Assembly: GCA_041665925.1 (NCBI GenBank)
Contig: JBAYHW010000001.1
Span: 11,282 to 75,281 of the forward strand
Length of the DNA stretch: 64,000 nucleotides
DNA from: Minisyncoccota bacterium
GTDB lineage: Bacteria > Patescibacteriota > Minisyncoccia > Phycocordibacterales > UBA9973
Reading direction: 5' to 3'
How positions within the stretch are numbered: the stretch's first letter is position 1; each line of letters starts with the position of its first letter. A program made the position numbers and the translations under genes. The notes beneath the pieces are model-generated. The model was not told the origin of the DNA, did no database searches, and worked only from the letters and a program-made list of their open reading frames with translations. Below are positions 2,495 to 61,062 of this stretch, in pieces.

Positions 2495-5260
2495 TTATTC
2501 CATGCTCGTATATCTCGCCATGATTTCAGCTTCCACTTCGGCGCGGTCGCGACCATATTTTACATACGAAAGTTCTTTCAAGCTATCTACATTCTCCATA
2601 TTTCCTTTTTCTGGAGCGAGGGTATGCAAGTTAAAGGGTTTAGTTGGCTGGCCTTTGACTAGCATCGTCACATACGCATTATAGTTATCAAGTTTGGTTA
2701 TATCATGCGCAGTAAATTGTGGCTTAAATTTTGGTTCCAAGAATGTAGCGTCTTCTGTGCCCACACGGAACACAGCCATGGATCCGACGTTACCGAACAC
2801 GGCATTTTTAATATTTTCTTCCAACTGGGTAATGTACTGATGCGCAATATTGAGAGAGAGACGATATTTACGAGCCTCGGACAAAATAGAAGCGATAGAT
2901 TCTGTGGTCACGTTTTGGAATTCGTCAATGTAGAGATAGAAATCATTCATCGGCTTGCCGAACATGTCTACTCGGGAAAGTGCCGCCATTTGAATCTTCC
3001 CCACCAAAACAAGTCCAATCAAATTTGCATTTATGTCCCCGAGTCTACCTTTAGAAAGATTTACTAAAAGAATTTTCTTCTCGTCCATTATTTTTCTAAA
3101 ATTGAAAACAGAATTCTGCTGAAGCACCACCGGGCGCATAATGTCGTTTGAAATAAAGTTATCGAACTTGGAAGAAATATAAGGCACGAAGTTTGCAAGC
3201 GATTGGTCCCCTGTCGTCTGCTCTGCTGAAACCCAGAATTGTTTAATGATCGGATTCTTACATCTTGCAAGCTTCATATCTCGAAATTCTTTATCTCCCA
3301 AGACCCGAGTAATCTCAAGAAGCGTGGACCCAGACTCTGGGTCTTCCATAACCAGAAAGGCGCTATTTCTGAAGTATTGCTCAAACATCGCTCCGCCTCC
3401 GACTTTCATATCAAAAAGTTTATTAAAAATTCCCATCATTTCATTTACTACGAAAGTCTTCTGTTCTGGATATTTCGGATCATACTCTAGCATGTTGAGC
3501 CCCATAGGTCGCGCAGTATATGCTGGATCAAAATATATAACATCATCTATGCGCTCCTTTGGAATACGAGACAGGATAGTCTGGATGTCTGTGCCGTGTG
3601 GGTCTATATAACAGCAACCATCCCCATTCCTGATGTCCTGTGTAATCATATTGAGCATGATATTTGTCTTACCTGTTCCAGTCTGACCTATTACATACAT
3701 ATGTCGCATACGGTCCTCGCGAGCCATATGAATCTCTGTATCCCGACCTCTATAACTATTAACCCCGAGGATTATGCCTTCCTGCCCCATCTCAATAGGC
3801 GCCGGAGCGATGCCTGCTTTTGCTTCTTTCAATTGTGGCTGACTGCCTATGCCTACTGGAAAGTGAAAGACTGAAGAGAGTTCTTTCAGATTTAGCGGTA
3901 AGATTTTATCGTGTGAAAATGTGCGGTAAGAAAAATCATGGAAAAGCTTTTTTAGATCTCCTCCAGTCGCTTGTTCAAAAAGAAAAGAATTACTAGCCGC
4001 TTCAGAAAATTGGTTGAAAGAAGACTCTATTTCTTTCAAAATTGCCTCAGCACGTTCTTTCGTTTCCCCAGAAGCAATAATTCTAATATTGGCTTTCATA
4101 ATTGTGCTTTTTATTTTATTCCCTATTTTTTCTGCTGCACCTTCATCTACCGCCCGCCTACCTTTTATATATTTCTCTTTTTTATCTTCTTCGGTTTTTT
4201 CATGCCCGAAGATAAGGTCTTTTCCGGCTTTCAGAAAGGCTTTATTGAATTTATAGAAATTGTCCGCCGCATGTTTGACTGAGATGCCATCCTTGACGTC
4301 GTCTAAAATCAAATGAAATTCGTTGATAAACTTGTCTCCGGCTGGAGCAACAACAATCTGGATAGCCGCTCCTTCTCCTGAAGTTTTCAACTTAGAGAAA
4401 ACATTTAAAATTGGATTCATCGGGTCATGCTCGATGTTGTCGTAAGTTTTTATAGGTAAGACAGAACGTTGTGTAAAAGAAGCGTATGCGCCGACAGACC
4501 CTCCATTTTCGTTAAAAATATTATAGTCATCCGTAACTTCGCGAATCTTAGCATTATGGTAAAAAGCTAAAACTTGTTTTTCAAAAAGAGATAGGTGCTT
4601 GTTTGGAATAGCTGCATACACGACGACTTGATCGCTTTGATTTCCTAAAGCTACCTCAAGAACAAAGTAATTTTCTTTTTCGTTGTATTTCCCCTCTCCA
4701 ATAGACTGCATCCCAGCATAAAATTGCTCCATGGCTCCTATGAACTCTTTAAACCCTTTAGACTTATCTGCTTCATCTGTAGGAGGTGGAAGCGTAATTT
4801 CAAACAGAGTCATGTTGAGAGCTTTATAAACAGGTGTGCCTTCTTTAAAATCAAGCCCTATCTGACCAGTCTTCAAATATTGAATTAAAATACGGTGAAA
4901 GTCGTCTTCGATATGCGGACTCCCCATCGCTTGCACAACCGAGAGAGCGTTTCGGACACCTTTGGTTATCACGATACCCAGAAGCTCTTCCATGACGTTA
5001 TCGTGAGATTCGGGCTTAAGCGCGAGCACAATACCTTCAGCTTGTTGTTCTCCTATTACTCTATCTGGGTGAACCAGATTTTCAGCTGGTATTTTTTTAT
5101 ATTCACCTATGACATCGCGAGTAGCGTGCTCGCTTGCATGTTCTACGTGTCCGATTTTAATTAGTTGCTCTTCGCGAGCCTTCACGTGAGCACGTAAATA
5201 GTCTAGCTCCTCTTCTGGGCTTTTAAACTTCGGCATCTCTTTAAAGAATGTCGGGTTCAT
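2495..5260 (-). CDS. VirD4/TraG-like (AAA_10/DUF87-type) P-loop ATPase, ~480-aa unknown N-terminal region, no TM helices
   Basis: Walker A 'VIGQTGTGKTN', Walker B 'LYIDEFQN', coupling-protein-like 'HQYITQLEE..FGN'. Confidence 0.55.
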   Translation of the reverse strand: MNPTFFKEMPKFKSPEEELDYLRAHVKAREEQLIKIGHVEHASEHATRDVIGEYKKIPAENLVHPDRVIGEQQAEGIVLALKPESHDNVMEELLGIVITKGVRNALSVVQAMGSPHIEDDFHRILIQYLKTGQIGLDFKEGTPVYKALNMTLFEITLPPPTDEADKSKGFKEFIGAMEQFYAGMQSIGEGKYNEKENYFVLEVALGNQSDQVVVYAAIPNKHLSLFEKQVLAFYHNAKIREVTDDYNIFNENGGSVGAYASFTQRSVLPIKTYDNIEHDPMNPILNVFSKLKTSGEGAAIQIVVAPAGDKFINEFHLILDDVKDGISVKHAADNFYKFNKAFLKAGKDLIFGHEKTEEDKKEKYIKGRRAVDEGAAEKIGNKIKSTIMKANIRIIASGETKERAEAILKEIESSFNQFSEAASNSFLFEQATGGDLKKLFHDFSYRTFSHDKILPLNLKELSSVFHFPVGIGSQPQLKEAKAGIAPAPIEMGQEGIILGVNSYRGRDTEIHMAREDRMRHMYVIGQTGTGKTNIMLNMITQDIRNGDGCCYIDPHGTDIQTILSRIPKERIDDVIYFDPAYTARPMGLNMLEYDPKYPEQKTFVVNEMMGIFNKLFDMKVGGGAMFEQYFRNSAFLVMEDPESGSTLLEITRVLGDKEFRDMKLARCKNPIIKQFWVSAEQTTGDQSLANFVPYISSKFDNFISNDIMRPVVLQQNSVFNFRKIMDEKKILLVNLSKGRLGDINANLIGLVLVGKIQMAALSRVDMFGKPMNDFYLYIDEFQNVTTESIASILSEARKYRLSLNIAHQYITQLEENIKNAVFGNVGSMAVFRVGTEDATFLEPKFKPQFTAHDITKLDNYNAYVTMLVKGQPTKPFNLHTLAPEKGNMENVDSLKELSYVKYGRDRAEVEAEIMARYTSME

Positions 5261-54111: not shown

Positions 54112-54498
54112 TCACTCTTTCAAATCAAGACAGACAGAATTTAAACAATATCTTTTTTTAGTTTCTGTGGGGCCATCATTAAACACGTGCCCGAGATGAG
54201 AGCCACAATTCGAGCAGGCAACTTCTGTTCGCTGCATTCCATGACTATTATCTTCAGTTTCTTTTACTGCTCTAGGAAGAGCTTTATCAAATGAAGGCCA
54301 GCCAGTCCCAGAATCAAACTTTGTGTCTGAAGGAAAAAGCATATTACCACAAACCACACAAGCATAAGTACCTTGACGCTTTTCGTGTAAATATTTCCCA
54401 CTCCCGGGTGACTCTGTTCCCTTCTCACGTAATACGTGATATTGCTCTGGCGTAAGTTTCTTTTTTAATTCTTCTTCATTTGGAGTATTCATATTCAT
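54112..54498 (-). CDS. msrB: peptide methionine-(R)-sulfoxide reductase MsrB
   Basis: CxxC pairs plus '[10 protein letters not shown]'. Confidence 0.85.
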
Positions 54499-54582
54499 GG
54501 TGCGCAGAGGGGGACTTGAACCCCCAAGGATTACTCCATACGAACCTCAATCGTACGCGTATACCAGTTCCGCCACCTGCGC
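54498..54582 (-). tRNA. tRNA-Leu (GAG), long variable arm
   Basis: GCGCAGGTGGCGGAACTGG...TTGAGGT...GGGGGTTCAAGTCCCCCTCTGCGCACCA. Confidence 0.8.
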
Positions 54583-55254
54583 ATAGTTTTTCTGTTGTTT
54601 CTTCTCAATTTGTAAAACTTTTTGTATTTTCAACTTTTTGCGAGACAAGCAAACAACTTTTTGATTGTAATACATTTTCTTGATAATTTCCAGCGCTTCT
54701 CTTTTTGCATATCTAAGACCATAAATCGAACCTTTAGTTTTTGACTTAGAAATATGACCTTTTATTCGTAATTTATTAAAAATTTCTTCACGAAGCCAAA
54801 AAATATGCTTTGAGCTGGCTGAGTTAAAAGTTAAATAAAACATATAACTAGATCGCCAACGTGGATCCCAATAAGAATAGAAGGATCCATCCCCGTCAAA
54901 ACTCCCACGCAAAAAATCAAAAAAATATTTATCTGGTATTGCTAGTCTCCCAATGGTTAATGATTTTTTAGGAGTCAATCCAATTGATAAAAGAAAATCA
55001 TAAAATATTCTATTTTTGAATTGAATTCTTAGACACCCATCCCCTTTACTGTTCCATTTATTACCTATAGTAAAATTCACATATAGGCATTTAGAAAAAT
55101 TTAACAACTGCTCCCTGTCTTTTGAAGTTAGGTCGATCAATAAGCCCCCATTTGAGAGATATCCATCTGTGGCAATTAAACCTACAGCATAAGCTAAGTT
55201 GGGTCTCCATTTTGTATCTATTATTTTTTTTGGTTGTGGTCCCCTCTTTCCCAT
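54547..55254 (-). CDS. LAGLIDADG homing endonuclease (two-motif, single-chain); last 12 codons overlap the tRNA-Leu 5' end
   Basis: '[14 protein letters not shown]' and '[11 protein letters not shown]'. Confidence 0.7.
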
Positions 55255-55310: not shown

Positions 55311-55328
55311 ACCCACTTTTGTGGGGTT
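55311..55328. terminator. intrinsic terminator (acccac-tttt-gtgggg) after rplS
   Basis: hairpin plus T-tract. Confidence 0.5.
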
Positions 55329-55346: not shown

Positions 55347-55757
55347 TTATTCTGTTACTTTTTCTTCTACCTCTGGAGTTTCGTTTTCTAACGTAACTGA
55401 ACGCATTTTTCGGCGAACATCTTTCACCGCCTTGGTGCGAATGTAGTAAAGTTTACTCCTGCGAGCTCGAGCTCTTTTTGTGATTTCAATTTTTCCTATC
55501 ATTGGAGAGTAAAGTGGGAAAATTCTTTCCACGCCCACACCAGAAGCTACCTTGCGAACTGTAAAAGTCGCACCTGCTTCTGTCCCGTGCTTACGAGCGA
55601 GAACAATTCCTTCAAAGGCCTGCAGACGATACTTGCCTTTTTCATCAAGAATCTTTGAAGATACGTTTATGGTGTCTCCTGCCTTGAAATCAAGCTTTTT
55701 TCGCTCCTCAAGATCTACTGGACTAAATTTAATTTTGTTGATTTTATTTCCTGCCAT
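55347..55757 (-). CDS. rplS: 50S ribosomal protein L19
   Basis: L19 sequence. Confidence 0.9.
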   Translation of the reverse strand: MAGNKINKIKFSPVDLEERKKLDFKAGDTINVSSKILDEKGKYRLQAFEGIVLARKHGTEAGATFTVRKVASGVGVERIFPLYSPMIGKIEITKRARARRSKLYYIRTKAVKDVRRKMRSVTLENETPEVEEKVTE

Positions 55758-55796: not shown

Positions 55797-57500
55797 TTAT
55801 ATGAATTCCTGCTGATAACATTTGACACAATACACTATCTCCGGCCTCTCTGGCGCATAGGGAGTATAAATAGGAGCTTCGCATTTCGCGCAAGTTCTGT
55901 GATACATACCAGGTTTGTTTTCTCTGGCAAATCTTTCATTTTCTCGACATTTTGGACACTCGTGAGGAAGAGGTAAATTCATTTTACGCAAAAGTTCCAG
56001 TTCTCCTGGGATAATTTTATAACTACGTTTGCAGTTGATGCATTCAATAATTTCTTGCAAAATTGAATCTGTTGTCTCTTTAATTGTTTGAGGCAAAATT
56101 TCTGATTTTATTGTAGATGATACATTTGGATTCTCTGTATCATCCCAATCATACCCTTGCGATATTGCTTCTTCTCTAGTTTTTGGCAAAAATCGCATTG
56201 CGTTTGATTTATTATATGGAAAGTTGCCAAACCCCAAAGAAAAAAACTCTCCATAACTCCACACCCTACCTAATTTATCCACTAAGGGATTTTTCTTCAT
56301 ATCTTCTATAATATCTTTTTTTAATTTCTCATAATCTTCCTTTGAATATTGCTTATTTAAAATACAGTAATTTTTGTGTTTTAAATTCACGCAGCCAAAA
56401 TTATTTTTCCCAGAAATTGACCAATGAGAGTATTCTGTATTCAAGGCATCGGGAAAACTATGGGAAGTGAACTTGCAATTACTGGCTCCATCCCCTGTTT
56501 GTGAACACTCATATAAAAGTTCTGCTATATTCCCCCAGCCAGTATAATCCATACAGTCTTTGGATCCGTCCACTGTTATAAGTTGACACCATTTACAATT
56601 CTCTGCGCCATTTAAGATATAACACTCCTTAGAGTTCTTTGATGTATATACATACTCGCCCGTGACATTTAAATTAAAGGAGTGCCCATGATACTCGCGA
56701 TAAGGACGAGTAAGCCAAAACTTACTAGATTCTCTCTCAAACTTCTTGATCCCAGATGAAGTATCTAACCTCATTTCTTTTAATTTTTTCTCATATTCTT
56801 CTTTAGAATACTGAACATTAAAGATACAATGTTTTGCCCCACGTAAATTTACACACCCTATACAGTCAGTACAACCATAGCAATTACGAGAAAACCAAAC
56901 ATCCACACAATCGTCACATTCTTCAGAGAAGAAAACTCTATAGCCTCTAATAAAACTTCGGGACCCATAACATAATTCTGACTTCCAGCCTCGAATACAA
57001 TCTGAACTCCATTTCAGGGTATTTAAAATTGAAGAATAATATACATTTTCACAAAAATCTGCCCAGATAGTCATAAAACAGTTTTTGGAATACGCGATCG
57101 AATTTGAATATTCACAATTTTTTAAAGTAGTGTAAGTACTCTCCAGAGAAGAATACGGGGTTTTCGTCGCAAGTTCTTTTACTTGTTCTAAAAAAGACCT
57201 TGAGGGGTCATAGTCCATAGCGTACTCTGTACCGTCCCAATCATCCGCCCACCAACAAGGCTGACAATACACAGTCAATTCCTTTTCTGGTGAAAACATA
57301 GATAACATCTTTTTCTCACACTTATTACAATTACGCCAAAATGGAGACCAACTGTTATCGACAGATAGTCTCCTAGCCATCCGGCACTCTGGGCACCAGG
57401 TGGGCGGCGGGACGGAAATTTTTTCGTAATAATTAAAATCTTCAGGTTCTATCGTGAATTCTTTTTTGCAGCTCTGGCAAGATTTTGTTTTCGCTTCCAT
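55797..57500 (-). CDS. Cys/Trp-rich 567-aa protein with terminal zinc-ribbon-like modules and an internal duplicated module; function unknown
   Basis: N- and C-terminal 'CxxCK[KR]x[FY]xIxP..[FL]..[YL]..K[IM].[VL]P.P..CPxCR'; internal 'GCVNL[RK]..K[HN][CY]CI[FL]N[VK]QYSKE[ED]YEK' twice. Confidence 0.4.
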   Translation of the reverse strand: MEAKTKSCQSCKKEFTIEPEDFNYYEKISVPPPTWCPECRMARRLSVDNSWSPFWRNCNKCEKKMLSMFSPEKELTVYCQPCWWADDWDGTEYAMDYDPSRSFLEQVKELATKTPYSSLESTYTTLKNCEYSNSIAYSKNCFMTIWADFCENVYYSSILNTLKWSSDCIRGWKSELCYGSRSFIRGYRVFFSEECDDCVDVWFSRNCYGCTDCIGCVNLRGAKHCIFNVQYSKEEYEKKLKEMRLDTSSGIKKFERESSKFWLTRPYREYHGHSFNLNVTGEYVYTSKNSKECYILNGAENCKWCQLITVDGSKDCMDYTGWGNIAELLYECSQTGDGASNCKFTSHSFPDALNTEYSHWSISGKNNFGCVNLKHKNYCILNKQYSKEDYEKLKKDIIEDMKKNPLVDKLGRVWSYGEFFSLGFGNFPYNKSNAMRFLPKTREEAISQGYDWDDTENPNVSSTIKSEILPQTIKETTDSILQEIIECINCKRSYKIIPGELELLRKMNLPLPHECPKCRENERFARENKPGMYHRTCAKCEAPIYTPYAPERPEIVYCVKCYQQEFI

Positions 57501-57504
57501 GGTT

Positions 57505-58296
57505 TTATTTTACTATCTTTTCAAATTCTTTAGGAATCTTAGATTCTACTTTGACCACATTCCCTTTCAAATCTTTAAATTCAATAGATCTAGCATGGAG
57601 AGCCATACGTTTTAAGCCTTTTGGGCAAGGGTTGTCTGGGTTGTAGAGTTCATCACACACAACAGGATGATTTATGTATTTCATGTGCACCCGAATCTGG
57701 TGTGTTCGTCCTGTTTTCGGCCGAACTTCTACAAAGGTATATTTAATGGGTGGAGCCTCGTAAAATTTCTTATTCGTGCCGGAGCCCTTTAGGGTAAAGC
57801 GAGAAGAAATTTTACGAAGCGAACCTTCTTCAAATCTTTTTAAAACTCTATATTCAGTAATAGCCTCTCGCATTTCTCCACGTGCCCCGCGACCAGCTAA
57901 GTATCTGCGGAAATCTTTCGGGCTTCGTCCTATTGGTTTATTTATTACTCCTCTTTCGTTTTTTACATTCCCAGAAACAATAGCCACATATATTTTTCTA
58001 ATTTCTCTATTCTGGAATTGTTGTTTCAAAAATTGATAAGCTTTTTCATTTTTAGCTAAAACCAGAACTCCGGAAGTGTCTCTATCCAGGCGATGTACAA
58101 TACCTGGCTTTTTTATTTCTATTTTTCTATTTTTATATTCATAGACTTCGTCCTCCCCCACATTTTTCATTCTTGGATAATTTTTCAATATCCAGTCAGT
58201 AAGTGTTTTTTCTTTAGTTCGTCCATCGGCATGCACAGCAATACCTGACGGTTTGTCTATAACTAAAATATTAGAATCCTCATATAAGATTTTCAT
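57505..58296 (-). CDS. RluA-family pseudouridine synthase
   Basis: 'HRLDRDTSGVLVLAKN'. Confidence 0.8.
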   Translation of the reverse strand: MKILYEDSNILVIDKPSGIAVHADGRTKEKTLTDWILKNYPRMKNVGEDEVYEYKNRKIEIKKPGIVHRLDRDTSGVLVLAKNEKAYQFLKQQFQNREIRKIYVAIVSGNVKNERGVINKPIGRSPKDFRRYLAGRGARGEMREAITEYRVLKRFEEGSLRKISSRFTLKGSGTNKKFYEAPPIKYTFVEVRPKTGRTHQIRVHMKYINHPVVCDELYNPDNPCPKGLKRMALHARSIEFKDLKGNVVKVESKIPKEFEKIVK

Positions 58297-58355: not shown

Positions 58356-58383
58356 CTGCGGACTCACAAAACTTTCAGTTTTG

Positions 58384-58455
58384 TGCCCTTGGTAGGAATC
58401 GAACCTACATCAAGGCCTTAGAAGAGCCTCGTTCTATCCATTGAACTACAAGGGC
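58384..58455 (-). tRNA. tRNA-Arg (TCT)
   Basis: GCCCTTGTAGTTCAATGGATAGAAC..CTTCTAA..GGTTCGATTCCTACCAAGGGCA. Confidence 0.8.
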
Positions 58456-58480
58456 AATTACTAATAACGGATAGACTGTG

Positions 58481-58553
58481 TGCGCGGTAAGGGACTCGAA
58501 CCCCTGACCTTCCCGGTGTAAACGGGTTGCTCTACCAACTGAGCTAACCGCGC
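58481..58553 (-). tRNA. tRNA-Val (TAC)
   Basis: GCGCGGTTAGCTCAGTTGGTAGAGC..TTTACAC..GGGGTTCGAGTCCCTTACCGCGCA. Confidence 0.8.
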
Positions 58554-58577: not shown

Positions 58578-58886
58578 TTACAGCGAAGGGTCAACGACAG
58601 GAGCTGGAAAATTTAAAATTTGATTTGATTTTTTTTCTCTTTCGGAAAAATAATTTAAGATTTTTTCTAAACCATCTTTTTTTATTATCAGTGTTTTTCT
58701 ACTTTCATTGAGATTTAATATCGCACCTTCTTGGTTGGTTTGCTTGAAAAGTCGATAACCGAAAACACCCGACAATATAATAATGATCAAGGCTAGAGTA
58801 GTCGCAATTTTCCAGTAAAGATTTGCATTAAAAACAAATTCTTTTTTCGTAAAATGCTTTTCTTTTTTAAAAAGTTGTATTTTCAT
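58578..58886 (-). CDS. small membrane protein in the pilus cluster (hypothetical)
   Basis: one TM; position downstream of pilO-like. Confidence 0.3.
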   Translation of the reverse strand: MKIQLFKKEKHFTKKEFVFNANLYWKIATTLALIIIILSGVFGYRLFKQTNQEGAILNLNESRKTLIIKKDGLEKILNYFSEREKKSNQILNFPAPVVDPSL

Positions 58887-58889
58887 TTT

Positions 58890-59414
58890 TTATAAGACGA
58901 AACTTAAAAGTTGTATTCTAAAAACAGCTTCCCAGCTTACTCCCCCTTTTTCCTCCACACTATTTCTGCGAATATCTAATGACAGAAAATTGAGTTCATA
59001 GGGTGAATTCTCTAAAAGCATTAAAAATTTATAAAGCGAAGCAAAGCTCCCCGAAGCTTTCAGCCCCACCACAAGCCCCACCCCGGTAGATAGCATATCC
59101 ACTGAACTCACTTCTGCCTTAGCCCCCACCCTAGTTGCTAATTGTTCAATGGTATCTAGGAACGGCACCACATCAGAACTCTTGGCAAAGTGAGTATCTA
59201 GTAATGCTTTATCTGGGGCAATTCTTAGAAGCGTTTGGTCAAGTGTTCGTATTTCGTTACGCCTATCTGTTTCGGTTTGCCACGCAACTCTTCCTTCGTT
59301 GGCTTTTCGATTATTGTCATTGATTAATTTATAAAGCATTAAAAAAGCACTCAATACAATGATGAAAAATACCGCGGAAGTAATTAATGGAATTTTTTGA
59401 AAATTATTTTTCAT
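58890..59414 (-). CDS. pilO: type IV pilus assembly protein PilO-like
   Basis: N-terminal TM plus coiled coil, position after pilN. Confidence 0.45.
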   Translation of the reverse strand: MKNNFQKIPLITSAVFFIIVLSAFLMLYKLINDNNRKANEGRVAWQTETDRRNEIRTLDQTLLRIAPDKALLDTHFAKSSDVVPFLDTIEQLATRVGAKAEVSSVDMLSTGVGLVVGLKASGSFASLYKFLMLLENSPYELNFLSLDIRRNSVEEKGGVSWEAVFRIQLLSFVL

Positions 59415-59415
59415 A

Positions 59416-59958
59416 TTATGCTGGAACTATACTTAAATAAAATTGAATATCCGCGCCTTTTACGAAGTTAGATATCGGCAAATCAACACTTTTAAAGCTT
59501 GCGCTTTTTTCTAGTGCTTGTCGGAAAAGTAGTAAAACTTCACGCGAAGGAGCCGTCCCGGTAATCTTGATTTTTCTTCCTCCGGTAGGGCCTTGTTCAT
59601 AGAAAATTTGGGTCAATTTGATATCGGCCCGCTTCTCCAAAAGGATGGCATTAATAACCTGTGAAGATGGTATAAATTTATCTTTCCTGGCGTTTTCAAT
59701 TAAATCAATTTTATTATTGATGTCTTTGACAGCCAATAAGGATTGCTCGCCCAGAACTGGAAGCGGTTCATTTTTTTGATTTTCTAATTGCGTATCAACA
59801 AAAGTGTCATTAACAGAAGAAGAAAAATATGCAGGAAGTAAGGAGATAGCCGCCACTAAAATACAAAAATTTAGCACCCCTATAAACAGTACGAAGAGTC
59901 TGAGGTAGAAACCCCTCGTCATTTTTTTCTTTTCTTCTTTTGGAATTAAATTAATCAT
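59416..59958 (-). CDS. pilN: type IV pilus assembly protein PilN
   Basis: N-terminus 'MINLIPKEEKK' plus TM. Confidence 0.55.
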   Translation of the reverse strand: MINLIPKEEKKKMTRGFYLRLFVLFIGVLNFCILVAAISLLPAYFSSSVNDTFVDTQLENQKNEPLPVLGEQSLLAVKDINNKIDLIENARKDKFIPSSQVINAILLEKRADIKLTQIFYEQGPTGGRKIKITGTAPSREVLLLFRQALEKSASFKSVDLPISNFVKGADIQFYLSIVPA

Positions 59959-59970
59959 TAAAAAATTTTC

Positions 59971-61062
59971 TTAATTAGCCTGATCTCCCAAAGCAAGCCC
60001 TAGCGCCGTAGAAAATGCTAAGGCTTGACGAAAACTCATATCAGGAATATAGCTCCCGGTGTTTACTATGTTAACCCACACGTTTGCCATCTCTACTGGA
60101 ATCTTCATACTAACAGAAATGTAATCTGCCAATCCTATCAAATTTGAATCCCCACCACAGAAAATAATTTTTTGAATCAGTGGATTATTTTTTCCTTCTT
60201 CGTCTTTGTGCGTATTCCAGTATAAAAAGTGTTTAGATATCTCATCTCGCAAAACAGAAACACTGTTCAAAAGTATAGAGAATATCTCCTGGTTGGCGCT
60301 ATTGCGCTGAAGTCCATATTCGTGTTTCATTTTATCTGCTTCTTCAAAGCTAATATTAAAGCTTTTCTGTATAGCTTGGGTAAGCATTATTCCTCCCAGA
60401 TCCAAGGTGGAAGTAAACATAACAATCCCACCAGAAACAATAAAAATACCGGTGCGTTTTTTACCAAAATCTACAACCATGTAAGTTCCTTTATCCCCCG
60501 CCTGAACCACAGCCCGACAAGTCGCCTGAGCTTCTAATTCACAAGACTTAACTTCTAGGTCTGAATGCTTAAATATGAGTAAGTAATTTTCAATTATATT
60601 TTTTGTAATTGTAGCTACTTGAACTTCTATACTTTGAGCATCTTCTTTTACTAAATCATAGTCGAAAATTGCATCCTCAGCTTTTATCGGCACATGTTCT
60701 TCTAAAGCAAGCTCTATACCTTCGCGAACATTTTTTAGCCCTGCTTTTTCTAGTCGCAATTGAAACAAATATACCTGCTCCTCTGGTAAAGAAACTCTTA
60801 CAGATCTGACTCCTTCTTCTTTTCGCAAAAGAGTTAGAATCTCTTCCATCTTTTTGGAGTTTTTGATTTTCCCTGACTCAATAACTCCAGGGGGGATAAC
60901 CCGTTCCCCATGTCTACCAACCCTAATTCCGTTTTTGGTTGCAATAAGTTCTATAAATTTTAGTGATTCATCGGAAATATCCAAGCCGAATGAGGGTGCT
61001 GAAAAAAACTTAGGAGGAGGAAAAATCCTAAAAAAGAATTTATCGAAAGAATCCATCAACAT
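59971..61062 (-). CDS. pilM: type IV pilus assembly protein PilM (actin-like ATPase fold)
   Basis: 'FGLDISDESLKFIEL', 'IIFCGGDSNLIGL'. Confidence 0.7.
   Translation of the reverse strand: MLMDSFDKFFFRIFPPPKFFSAPSFGLDISDESLKFIELIATKNGIRVGRHGERVIPPGVIESGKIKNSKKMEEILTLLRKEEGVRSVRVSLPEEQVYLFQLRLEKAGLKNVREGIELALEEHVPIKAEDAIFDYDLVKEDAQSIEVQVATITKNIIENYLLIFKHSDLEVKSCELEAQATCRAVVQAGDKGTYMVVDFGKKRTGIFIVSGGIVMFTSTLDLGGIMLTQAIQKSFNISFEEADKMKHEYGLQRNSANQEIFSILLNSVSVLRDEISKHFLYWNTHKDEEGKNNPLIQKIIFCGGDSNLIGLADYISVSMKIPVEMANVWVNIVNTGSYIPDMSFRQALAFSTALGLALGDQAN

Follow-up and report, generated by a model that had tools for sequence, protein, structure and literature searches.

Zinc modules with four cysteine ligands (C4) can act as recruitment sites for adaptors or substrates, either to an ATPase, as in the N-terminal zinc-binding domain of ClpX, or to a chaperone, as in the Cys-rich domain of DnaJ. 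In LIM domains the two fingers are separated by a 2-residue spacer and use C2HC plus C4, C3H or C3D ligands, and the insect antifreeze repeat (IPR016133) is a 12-residue TCTxSxxCxxAx unit with cross-core disulfides. Small Methanosarcina proteins with the spacing CxxC-x17-CxxC bind zinc, as measured by inductively coupled plasma mass spectrometry (ICP-MS) (PMC12704099). Much of bacterial diversity falls within the Patescibacteria, most of which have yet to be cultured and whose genomes are very small. A survey of 2,918 of their genomes counted 5,713 VirD4-like homologues, approximately two per genome, only 148 of which lie near virB4, and its authors raised possible exaptation (PMC12102498). 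Here we describe a Cys- and Trp-rich protein (herein referred to as X) encoded in a 64,000-nucleotide stretch of DNA (herein referred to as the window) from a Minisyncoccota bacterium (GenBank assembly GCA_041665925.1, contig JBAYHW010000001.1, positions 11,282 to 75,281 of the forward strand). X is predicted to consist, in order, of a zinc module, a beta-solenoid, a helical hairpin, a second beta-solenoid, a small acidic domain and a second zinc module, an architecture that we found described nowhere and that is assembled from known fold classes.

Architecture of protein X

The extent and composition given for X in a preliminary description of this DNA check out: the protein of 567 residues holds 36 Cys (6.35%) and 16 Trp (2.8%), compared with averages of 0.81% Cys and 1.03% Trp for the long open reading frames (ORFs) of the window, and the Poisson probability of at least 36 Cys against that background is approximately 2e-20. 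The ATG lies only three codons from an upstream in-frame stop, and homologues share the same start. The identical database entry is annotated as a 'hypothetical protein' of Candidatus Paceibacterota. Thirteen CxxC motifs are present, and the sequence contains no signal peptide and no membrane segment.

The CxxC pairs at 8/11, 36/39, 58/61, and 79/82 are mirrored at 487/490, 515/518, 537/540, and 558/561, and the N module (residues 8–83) aligns with the C module (487–562) without a gap over 76 residues (z = 22.8 against shuffles). At the family level hhalign relates the two with a probability of 99.8% (E = 1.2e-29), which bears out the earlier observation that both termini share one Cys-pair architecture and indicates that the end modules are homologous. 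The duplication previously noted in the middle of X is real and longer than was quoted: residues ~124–243 match ~274–397, approximately 120 residues on each side (z = 14.5 against shuffles; family-level hhalign probability 99.9%, E = 6e-36), and the quoted pair 215–239 / 369–393 is the conserved end of this longer repeat. A control hhalign comparison of the N module with the first copy of the middle repeat gave a probability of 0.45%, and a family-profile search found no second copy of X within the window.

A first AlphaFold2 (AF2) run with 42 close homologues did not resolve the middle of X (predicted local distance difference test score, pLDDT, 67.6); a run with 135 sequences, including distant paralogs, reached a pLDDT of 88.2 and a predicted template modeling score (pTM) of 0.89, with no segment below 50. 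In this model the N module (pLDDT ~95) has C8/C11 between strands 4–7 and 14–17 and C36/C39 at the start of helix 37–46; C487/C490 and C515/C518 are placed likewise, with a helix at 516–525. Because the first Cys pair lies between two strands and the second starts a helix, the arrangement is that of a treble clef, from which four structural zinc ions are predicted. The ligands would be C8, C11, C36, and C39 (finger 1) and C58, C61, C79, and C82 (finger 2) in the N module, and C487, C490, C515, and C518 (finger 1) and C537, C540, C558, and C561 (finger 2) in the C module. The second finger of both modules has exactly the CxxC-x17-CxxC spacing, and E500 and R519 of the C module are invariant in the family alignment.

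On X itself the matches to known finger models are sub-threshold: Pfam PF13451 (zf_Tbcl) scores 19.9 bits on residues 4–44 (E = 7.4e-4; cut-off 24), PF23477 (zf_Tbcl_2) scores 22.5 bits on residues 532–564 (cut-off 27) and NCBIfam TIGR04272 scores 18.9 bits on the same residues (cut-off 36). Among 69 diverse relatives, 19 match zf_Tbcl (best E = 8.5e-8) and 30 match zf_Tbcl_2 at E < 0.01, and because of these matches we interpret each end module as a zf_Tbcl plus zf_Tbcl_2 pair of C4 treble-clef fingers. Precomputed PF23477 assignments are also found on many homologues that are 64–81% identical to X, and precomputed PF13451 assignments on some relatives; a 40-aa finger query against a large protein database matched one small protein. 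The binding of four structural zinc ions by X is hence a well-supported prediction from motif, model structure and analogy with the Methanosarcina proteins, and the multi-zinc character suggested in the preliminary description stands on the same three grounds (PMC12704099). The second finger of the N module departs from the general conservation: the equivalents of C61, C79, and C82 are 59–60% conserved, versus 90–100% for the Cys of the other fingers, and all three are lost in ~40% of family members. Many paralogs thus do without this finger, although it is intact in the window protein.

Structure prediction had been proposed as a way to examine X. In the AF2 model, residues ~126–232 and ~266–386 form single-residue beta bridges at every third residue, followed by helices, such that the middle of X is predicted to be two homologous beta-solenoids of ~110 residues each. 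The preliminary description had rightly seen a duplication and many Cys in this region; it missed the double beta-solenoid, as well as the tandem paralog family and the links to VirD4-like ATPases and GNAT domains described below. The Cys frequency of solenoid 1 has an exact period of 3 (power 1.35 versus 0.37 for the 99th percentile of shuffles), and its twelve Cys, from 129 to 225, all fall on one 3-residue register. Most ladder positions hold Cys in just 30–60% of family members; in paralogs the Cys is swapped for Ser, Val, Ala, Leu, Ile, Thr, or Gly, and His, Asp, and Glu are not the main alternatives at most positions, with one clear exception at H225 (24/135). In solenoid 2 of the window protein most ladder Cys have been lost. 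Because of the exact 3-residue period and the substitution by small or aliphatic residues, we interpret the 20 central Cys as mostly forming a core ladder that lines both solenoids, not ligand sets. Exceptions are the CxxCxxCxxC motif formed by C207, C210, C213, and C216 (81–96% conserved), C370 (96%), and C379 (88%). No described repeat could be matched to an exact 3-residue core register over ~100 residues of X.

Outside the solenoid bodies, D86, W88, D98, F103, Q106, L110, and P115 of the linker that follows the N module are invariant or near-invariant, N382 and Y385 of the solenoid 2 cap are invariant, and G417, F419, Y429, N430, A434, G449, and W452 are conserved in the region of the small domain.

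The X family and its chromosomal position

A word-indexed search with X retrieved more than 6,383 relatives, the best 120 of which are 64–92% identical and nearly all exactly 567 aa long. With an exhaustive profile search we obtained representatives of at least 4,249 clusters at 50% identity, 1,667 of them at E ≤ 1e-30; the best 150 are mostly full-length, at ~550–600 aa. The family profile scores 715.7 bits against the window ORF in a full-length collinear match (profile positions 2–553), and with the cap motif GC.NL....YCI.NKQYSKEEY recurring across the family, the window protein has the full family architecture. In a scan of one genome per GTDB species we confirmed 577 stretches, of which the best 80 are nearly all labeled as Patescibacteria (Nomura-, Jorgensen-, Giovannoni-, Staskawicz-, Lipton-, Niyogi-, and Sungiibacteria, Paceibacteria, and Minisyncoccia), and a search from a divergent X member reached Gracilibacteria and Peregrinibacteria. 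One cluster of GNAT fusions is labeled Bdellovibrionales (by label only), and its neighbors, Ser/Thr kinases and an extracytoplasmic function (ECF) sigma factor, are unlike those of the candidate phyla radiation (CPR). These distributions point to a large family that occurs almost only in Patescibacteria, in agreement with the earlier suggestion that X is specific to its lineage. In the Peregrinibacteria/Gracilibacteria-like branch (loci L091 and L093), genes for TrmB-type helix-turn-helix regulators recur beside X-sized genes.

The earlier statement that X belongs to no known family also holds: Pfam, NCBIfam, PADLOC, and PDB sequence searches returned only the two sub-threshold 'probable treble clef' models, the PDB searches with X and with the family profile giving LIM-like noise alone. 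The copies that we encountered are annotated as 'hypothetical' or carry a zinc-finger name alone, with no domain model on the core, and literature searches on zf_Tbcl and TIGR names, on Cys-rich or treble-clef Patescibacteria proteins and on zinc-ribbon paralogs turned up no account of the X family.

We collected 152 full-length X genes from 83 loci (725 kb in total). These loci come from related genomes, and counts drawn from them are not independent events. More than half of the genes (88/152) directly abut another X, tandem arrays reach 5–6 copies, one genome has at least seven copies over three contigs, and X paralogs can take up over 1% of the sequence in a genome smaller than 1 Mb. Orthologs of the window protein vary least in solenoid 1 and the two caps (entropy 0.63–0.65, solenoid 1 at 0.63). 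Among paralogs the solenoid bodies diverge (2.45–2.65), the hairpin between the solenoids is the most variable segment (3.03) and the caps and fingers are conserved (1.7–2.0); conserved fingers and caps with variable solenoids are the pattern expected for a common function combined with paralog-specific recognition by the solenoid faces. The window subfamily itself appears to be under strong purifying selection with fixed length, and we regard the window copy as the slow-evolving, core representative of a large paralog family in Patescibacteria.

X lies between rluA and rplS, as first described (table 1), and the conserved neighborhood that had been put forward as a further check is found in loci L001–L009 and, with an X of just 40% identity, in L060; within the sequence cluster of the window copy, 10 of 19 members have the rluA–X–rplS context. 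Within shared loci, identity to the window is 61–70% for X, 55–71% for RluA, and 66–84% for L19, and because these values are comparable, X evolves about as slowly as its housekeeping neighbors. A consensus scan for terminators on the same strand found no site between rluA, X, and rplS and one directly after rplS, so that the three co-oriented genes, with their short gaps, look like one transcription unit. The neighboring synthase is most like RluD (TIGR00005, 210.8 bits versus a cut-off of 192.7, model positions 73–215); its match begins at position 73 of TIGR00005 and 85 of the RluD model, leaving the N-terminal part of the models uncovered.

Several further elements surround this unit. Upstream of rluA are a PilM-like gene and, downstream of that gene, three small ORFs (180, 174, and 102 aa, without Pfam matches); this block is syntenic with the rluA–X–rplS unit in L001, L004, L006, and L008. 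Genes for tRNA-Arg and tRNA-Val also lie upstream of rluA. Between rplS and tRNA-Leu(GAG) is a free-standing LAGLIDADG-like ORF, the last 36 nt of which overlap the 5' part of the tRNA gene. An Rfam scan returned five tRNAs and nothing else, and the flanks of X hold no mobile-element or toxin genes.

Table 1. Position of X, its predicted segments, and the other features discussed here; coordinates count from the first base of the window.
Feature	Coordinates	Strand	Remarks
ORF X	55797..57500	(-)	567 aa + stop codon, ATG start; identical to MFA6520062.1 (WCT44_00445)
N-terminal zinc module, residues 4-84	57249..57491	(-)	homologous to C module by alignment; finger 1 zf_Tbcl-like, finger 2 zf_Tbcl_2-like
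Conserved linker, residues 85-125	57126..57248	(-)	motif WW.D.WD...Y..DYD..R.F..Q..EL; predicted helix 103-113; pLDDT 92-98
Predicted beta-solenoid 1 + C-terminal cap, residues 126-232	56805..57125	(-)	cap motif GCVNLRG..HCIFN.QYSKEEY
Predicted helical hairpin between solenoids, residues 233-265	56706..56804	(-)	helices 233-243, 248-262 (AF2)
Predicted beta-solenoid 2 + cap, residues 266-386	56343..56705	(-)	homologous to solenoid 1 by alignment; cap motif FGCVNLKHKNYCILNKQYSKEDY
Predicted helix 387-403 + acidic small domain 405-483	56052..56342	(-)	pLDDT 89-97
C-terminal zinc module, residues 484-567	55800..56051	(-)	basic; zf_Tbcl_2 sub-threshold match
RluA-subfamily pseudouridine synthase gene	57505..58296	(-)	4 nt upstream of X; PF00849 E 1e-32
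rplS (ribosomal protein L19)	55347..55757	(-)	39 nt downstream of X; PF01245 E 5e-32
Terminator-like hairpin, then T-run	55312..55325	(-)	just after rplS; consensus scan only
PilM-like gene + three small ORFs	58578-61062	(-)	upstream of rluA
tRNA-Arg + tRNA-Val	58383-58553	(-)
LAGLIDADG-like ORF	54547-55254	(-)	235 aa; PF14528 E 4.7e-5; no NCBIfam match
tRNA-Leu(GAG)	54498-54582	(-)
VirD4/TraD-like ATPase	2495-5260	(-)	921 aa; N-terminal extension ~480 aa, no zinc finger; 50 kb from X

Paralog neighborhoods and the function of X

We tentatively propose that X is a soluble cytoplasmic adaptor or scaffold in which the fingers dock a common ligand, the solenoid faces select a target and the window copy acts on the translation apparatus, and we hold this proposal with limited confidence. 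Four zinc ions would stabilize the protein. The zinc modules and solenoid caps, which are conserved in all paralogs, would dock a common partner. This could be the VirD4-like ATPases with fingers, described below, or nucleic acid, contacted through the Arg-rich helices CRxxRRxxxRN and CRxxxRxxR; nucleic-acid binding had been suggested in the preliminary description and is a property that we infer. The solenoid faces, frozen within the orthologous group and differing between paralogs, would select the specific target. For the window copy this target would most likely be part of the translation apparatus, a role suggested by the conserved rluA–X–rplS position: X might serve the adjacent RluD-like synthase by presenting it with rRNA, tRNA, or a ribosomal particle, or might act in maturation of the large subunit.

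Fusions offer anecdotal support for the idea that X works with an enzyme that modifies RNA or protein. GNAT::X fusions of 725–734 aa form at least nine clusters at 55–62% identity (P0203 and P0285–P0292, from L088, L094, and L095), some with degenerate fingers (in P0203 CEISGS stands where CxxC would be), and one IMPase/CysQ-like::X fusion of 832 aa (P0299, L090) lies beside a SpoU methylase gene. One GNAT::X gene follows iscS–mnmA–miaB–rnc–der, and in another genome a stand-alone GNAT gene converges on X next to pnp–rpsO.

Several observations weigh against this proposal. The der/rnc/mnmA neighborhood is no general rule for GNAT::X, as two other fusion loci do not share it. Most paralogs are found not near translation genes but near VirD4-like ATPases, dnaK/dnaJ, and cutA. 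The pilMN-like genes are also syntenic upstream of rluA, and the rluA–X–rplS order could hence be an inherited position without functional coupling. X as a whole is slightly acidic and only its C module is clearly basic; across the family, the median net charge is +5 for the C module, near neutral for the N module, and -6 for the small domain. The uncovered N-terminal part of the synthase could be taken to call for a partner in trans, since the corresponding part of RluD and RluC holds an S4 RNA-binding domain; however, RluA and TruC of Escherichia coli are also without S4, so that such a partner is not required.

The commonest neighbor of X paralogs is a TrwB/TraD/VirD4-like ATPase (PF10412, PF02534, DUF87). 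These ATPases, which resemble type IV coupling proteins, account for 38 ORFs in 28 of the 83 loci; more than ten paralog clusters show the linkage, which recurs in a distant 1.37-Mb genome (L092). The density of the ATPases near X is roughly 10–25 times the background, in loci that come from related genomes and do not represent independent events. A CxxC-x17-CxxC finger of zf_Tbcl_2 type forms the C-terminus of nine of the 38 ATPases (two that were scanned score 49–52 bits), with the consensus C..CGK.T.VPF.P..GRPVYC..C. Genes for the finger-bearing ATPases, at L036:7994-9685, L069:1865-3997, and seven other loci, immediately precede X paralogs. With T denoting a VirD4-like ATPase, the order dnaK–T(zf)–X–X–T–dnaJ is recurrent; it is seen in L068, L069, L079, L074–L076, L030, L034, L015, and L045, where the ATPase and X genes are inserted into what is normally the dnaK–dnaJ chaperone operon. 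A second recurrent order is T–cutA–cytidylyltransferase–X–X, and cutA1 (divalent-ion tolerance) adjoins X paralogs in ~10 loci.

This linkage underlies the strongest alternative to the adaptor proposal, which is that the X family serves as partners (adaptors, regulators, or translocated substrates) of orphan VirD4/TraD-like ATPases. The CxxC-x17-CxxC finger that X shares with some of these ATPases would be the docking element, or else X and the ATPase would attach to a common DNA or RNA, and the window copy would be a diverged member that acts with the 921-aa ATPase encoded 50 kb away. We consider this a real but lesser possibility. Beyond the breadth of the linkage, the fingers, and the recurrent dnaK–dnaJ order, it is favored by the published observation that orphan VirD4-like genes lie mostly away from virB4 and may have been exapted (PMC12102498). 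However, the subfamily to which the window copy belongs is not adjacent to such an ATPase, and the only one in the window is fingerless; the loci represent related genomes, and just 19 of the 152 full-length X genes directly abut an ATPase; and a protein as conserved as its ribosomal neighbor is unlikely to be a secreted effector. At the family level, action on translation and partnership with the ATPases are compatible.

Three further explanations are less likely than partnership with the ATPases. The tandem arrays of up to 5–6 divergent paralogs, the presence of at least seven copies in one small genome, the variable solenoid surfaces, and the linkage to secretion-type ATPases would suit a diversifying conflict or host-interaction system (phage defense, or effectors directed at a host bacterium) of which the window copy is one member; we consider this unlikely, given that no PADLOC model matches X, that the family is essentially absent from viruses (one marginal match, at a contig end, in the viral contigs searched, and no tblastn match in phage genomes), that X has no signal peptide or membrane segment and no mobile-element or toxin genes at its flanks, and that the window subfamily is of fixed length and strongly constrained. 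That X is a self-assembling cytoskeletal or filament-forming beta-solenoid, in the manner of bactofilin or curli and with the zinc modules as end caps or attachment points, seems more doubtful still, since in the predicted structure each solenoid is followed by a conserved cap and then helices, and zinc modules close both ends, which would argue against open-ended stacking, and since a pTM of 0.89 points to a compact monomer. Least probable of all, in our judgment, is a metal-storage, iron-sulfur (Fe-S), or redox protein whose Cys ladder coordinates metals or clusters or cycles between thiol and disulfide. The 36 Cys, the high conservation of C207–C216, C370, and C379, the presence of cutA1 beside paralogs, and the scores of phage [CxxCxx]n proteins against the X profile are consistent with such a role, but the ladder positions are Cys in only a fraction of members and are freely replaced by residues such as Ser, Val, and Gly, solenoid 2 of X has lost most of them, and no ferredoxin, thioredoxin, or metallothionein model matches X at E ≤ 10; the redox function raised in the preliminary description accordingly finds no support.

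More speculatively, and well short of what we would assert, X may define a class of period-3 Cys-ladder solenoids with double treble-clef caps that serve as interchangeable specificity subunits of an orphan-VirD4-based Patescibacteria machine, with the rluA–X–rplS copy as a CPR-specific ribosome- or RNA-maturation factor that replaces ones that reduced genomes lack. Irrespective of mechanism, a protein whose rate of evolution is about as low as that of the neighboring ribosomal protein is likely important to Patescibacteria biology. For structural biology it offers four predicted zinc sites together with Cys-lined solenoids of a new kind, and further leads are the conserved, operon-like association with the genes for L19 and an RluD-like pseudouridine synthase and the strong genomic link of its paralogs to orphan VirD4-like ATPases, the role of which was recently flagged as unexplained (PMC12102498). 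The adaptor model, if true, would explain what these orphan ATPases act on and how one scaffold is diversified for many targets.

Comparison with known systems

The closest match to the end modules is with zf_Tbcl, zf_Tbcl_2, and TIGR04272, which share the Cys spacing of both, including the exactly 17 residues of the second finger, and likewise the predicted knuckle and helix. These models, however, describe isolated domains of 37–48 aa, whereas X carries the pair at each end of a 400-aa core to which no model applies. Two consecutive zinc fingers that form one module are also characteristic of LIM domains, and the X family profile scores against the second LIM finger of CRP1, CRP2, and PINCH (E = 0.013–0.6), although not significantly. 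The spacer of X is 18 residues rather than two and all eight of its ligands are Cys; on these grounds, and given the non-significant profile scores, we rejected the interpretation of the end modules as LIM domains. A Foldseek search of X against the PDB gave no match at E < 0.2.

Narrow beta-solenoids such as curli CsgA, ryegrass ice-binding protein, the left-handed beta-helix enzymes, and insect antifreeze proteins show no sequence relationship to X, which differs from them in being cytoplasmic and capped by zinc modules. Membership among left-handed beta-helices (hexapeptide repeats) was rejected, as there is no Hexapep match in Pfam and the period is exactly 3; X does not have the Cys-ladder beta-helix of the insect antifreeze type, with no AFP Pfam model matching; and an interpretation as pentapeptide repeats was likewise rejected. 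Nor does X belong with 4Fe-4S or other Fe-S proteins: paralogs have Ser, Val, Ala, or Leu where X has ladder Cys, only residues 207–216 resemble CxxCxxCxxC, and Pfam and NCBIfam place no Fer4 model on it at E ≤ 10.

The nearest sequence analogue of the X solenoid, homology not being proven, appears to be a set of phage [CxxCxx]n proteins that probably correspond to PHROG 15341. The profile phrog_15341 is matched by 45 of 69 family members (best E = 2.8e-10; E = 0.01 for the window protein alone), and the phage proteins align to the X profile over 67–106 residues in the same 3-residue register. Examples are CP21_192 of a Campylobacter phage (L096:2920-3345) and NVP1238B_69 of a Vibrio phage (L097:2914-3288), with ~30 Cys in 125–142 aa, the latter annotated as an 'insect antifreeze protein'. 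Pfam has no model for these proteins, nor for the X solenoid. Unlike X, they are near-pure Cys repeats without zinc modules or caps, and given the large composition bias the match may reflect the repeat pattern, not common descent.

In function, the nearest parallels may be the zinc modules of ClpX and DnaJ. Although X has no sequence or fold match to either, and the ATPases near X are of the FtsK/HerA/VirD4 class and not AAA+ Clp, the analogy is one of arrangement: X paralogs adjoin finger-bearing ATPases of hexameric type and lie between dnaK and dnaJ.

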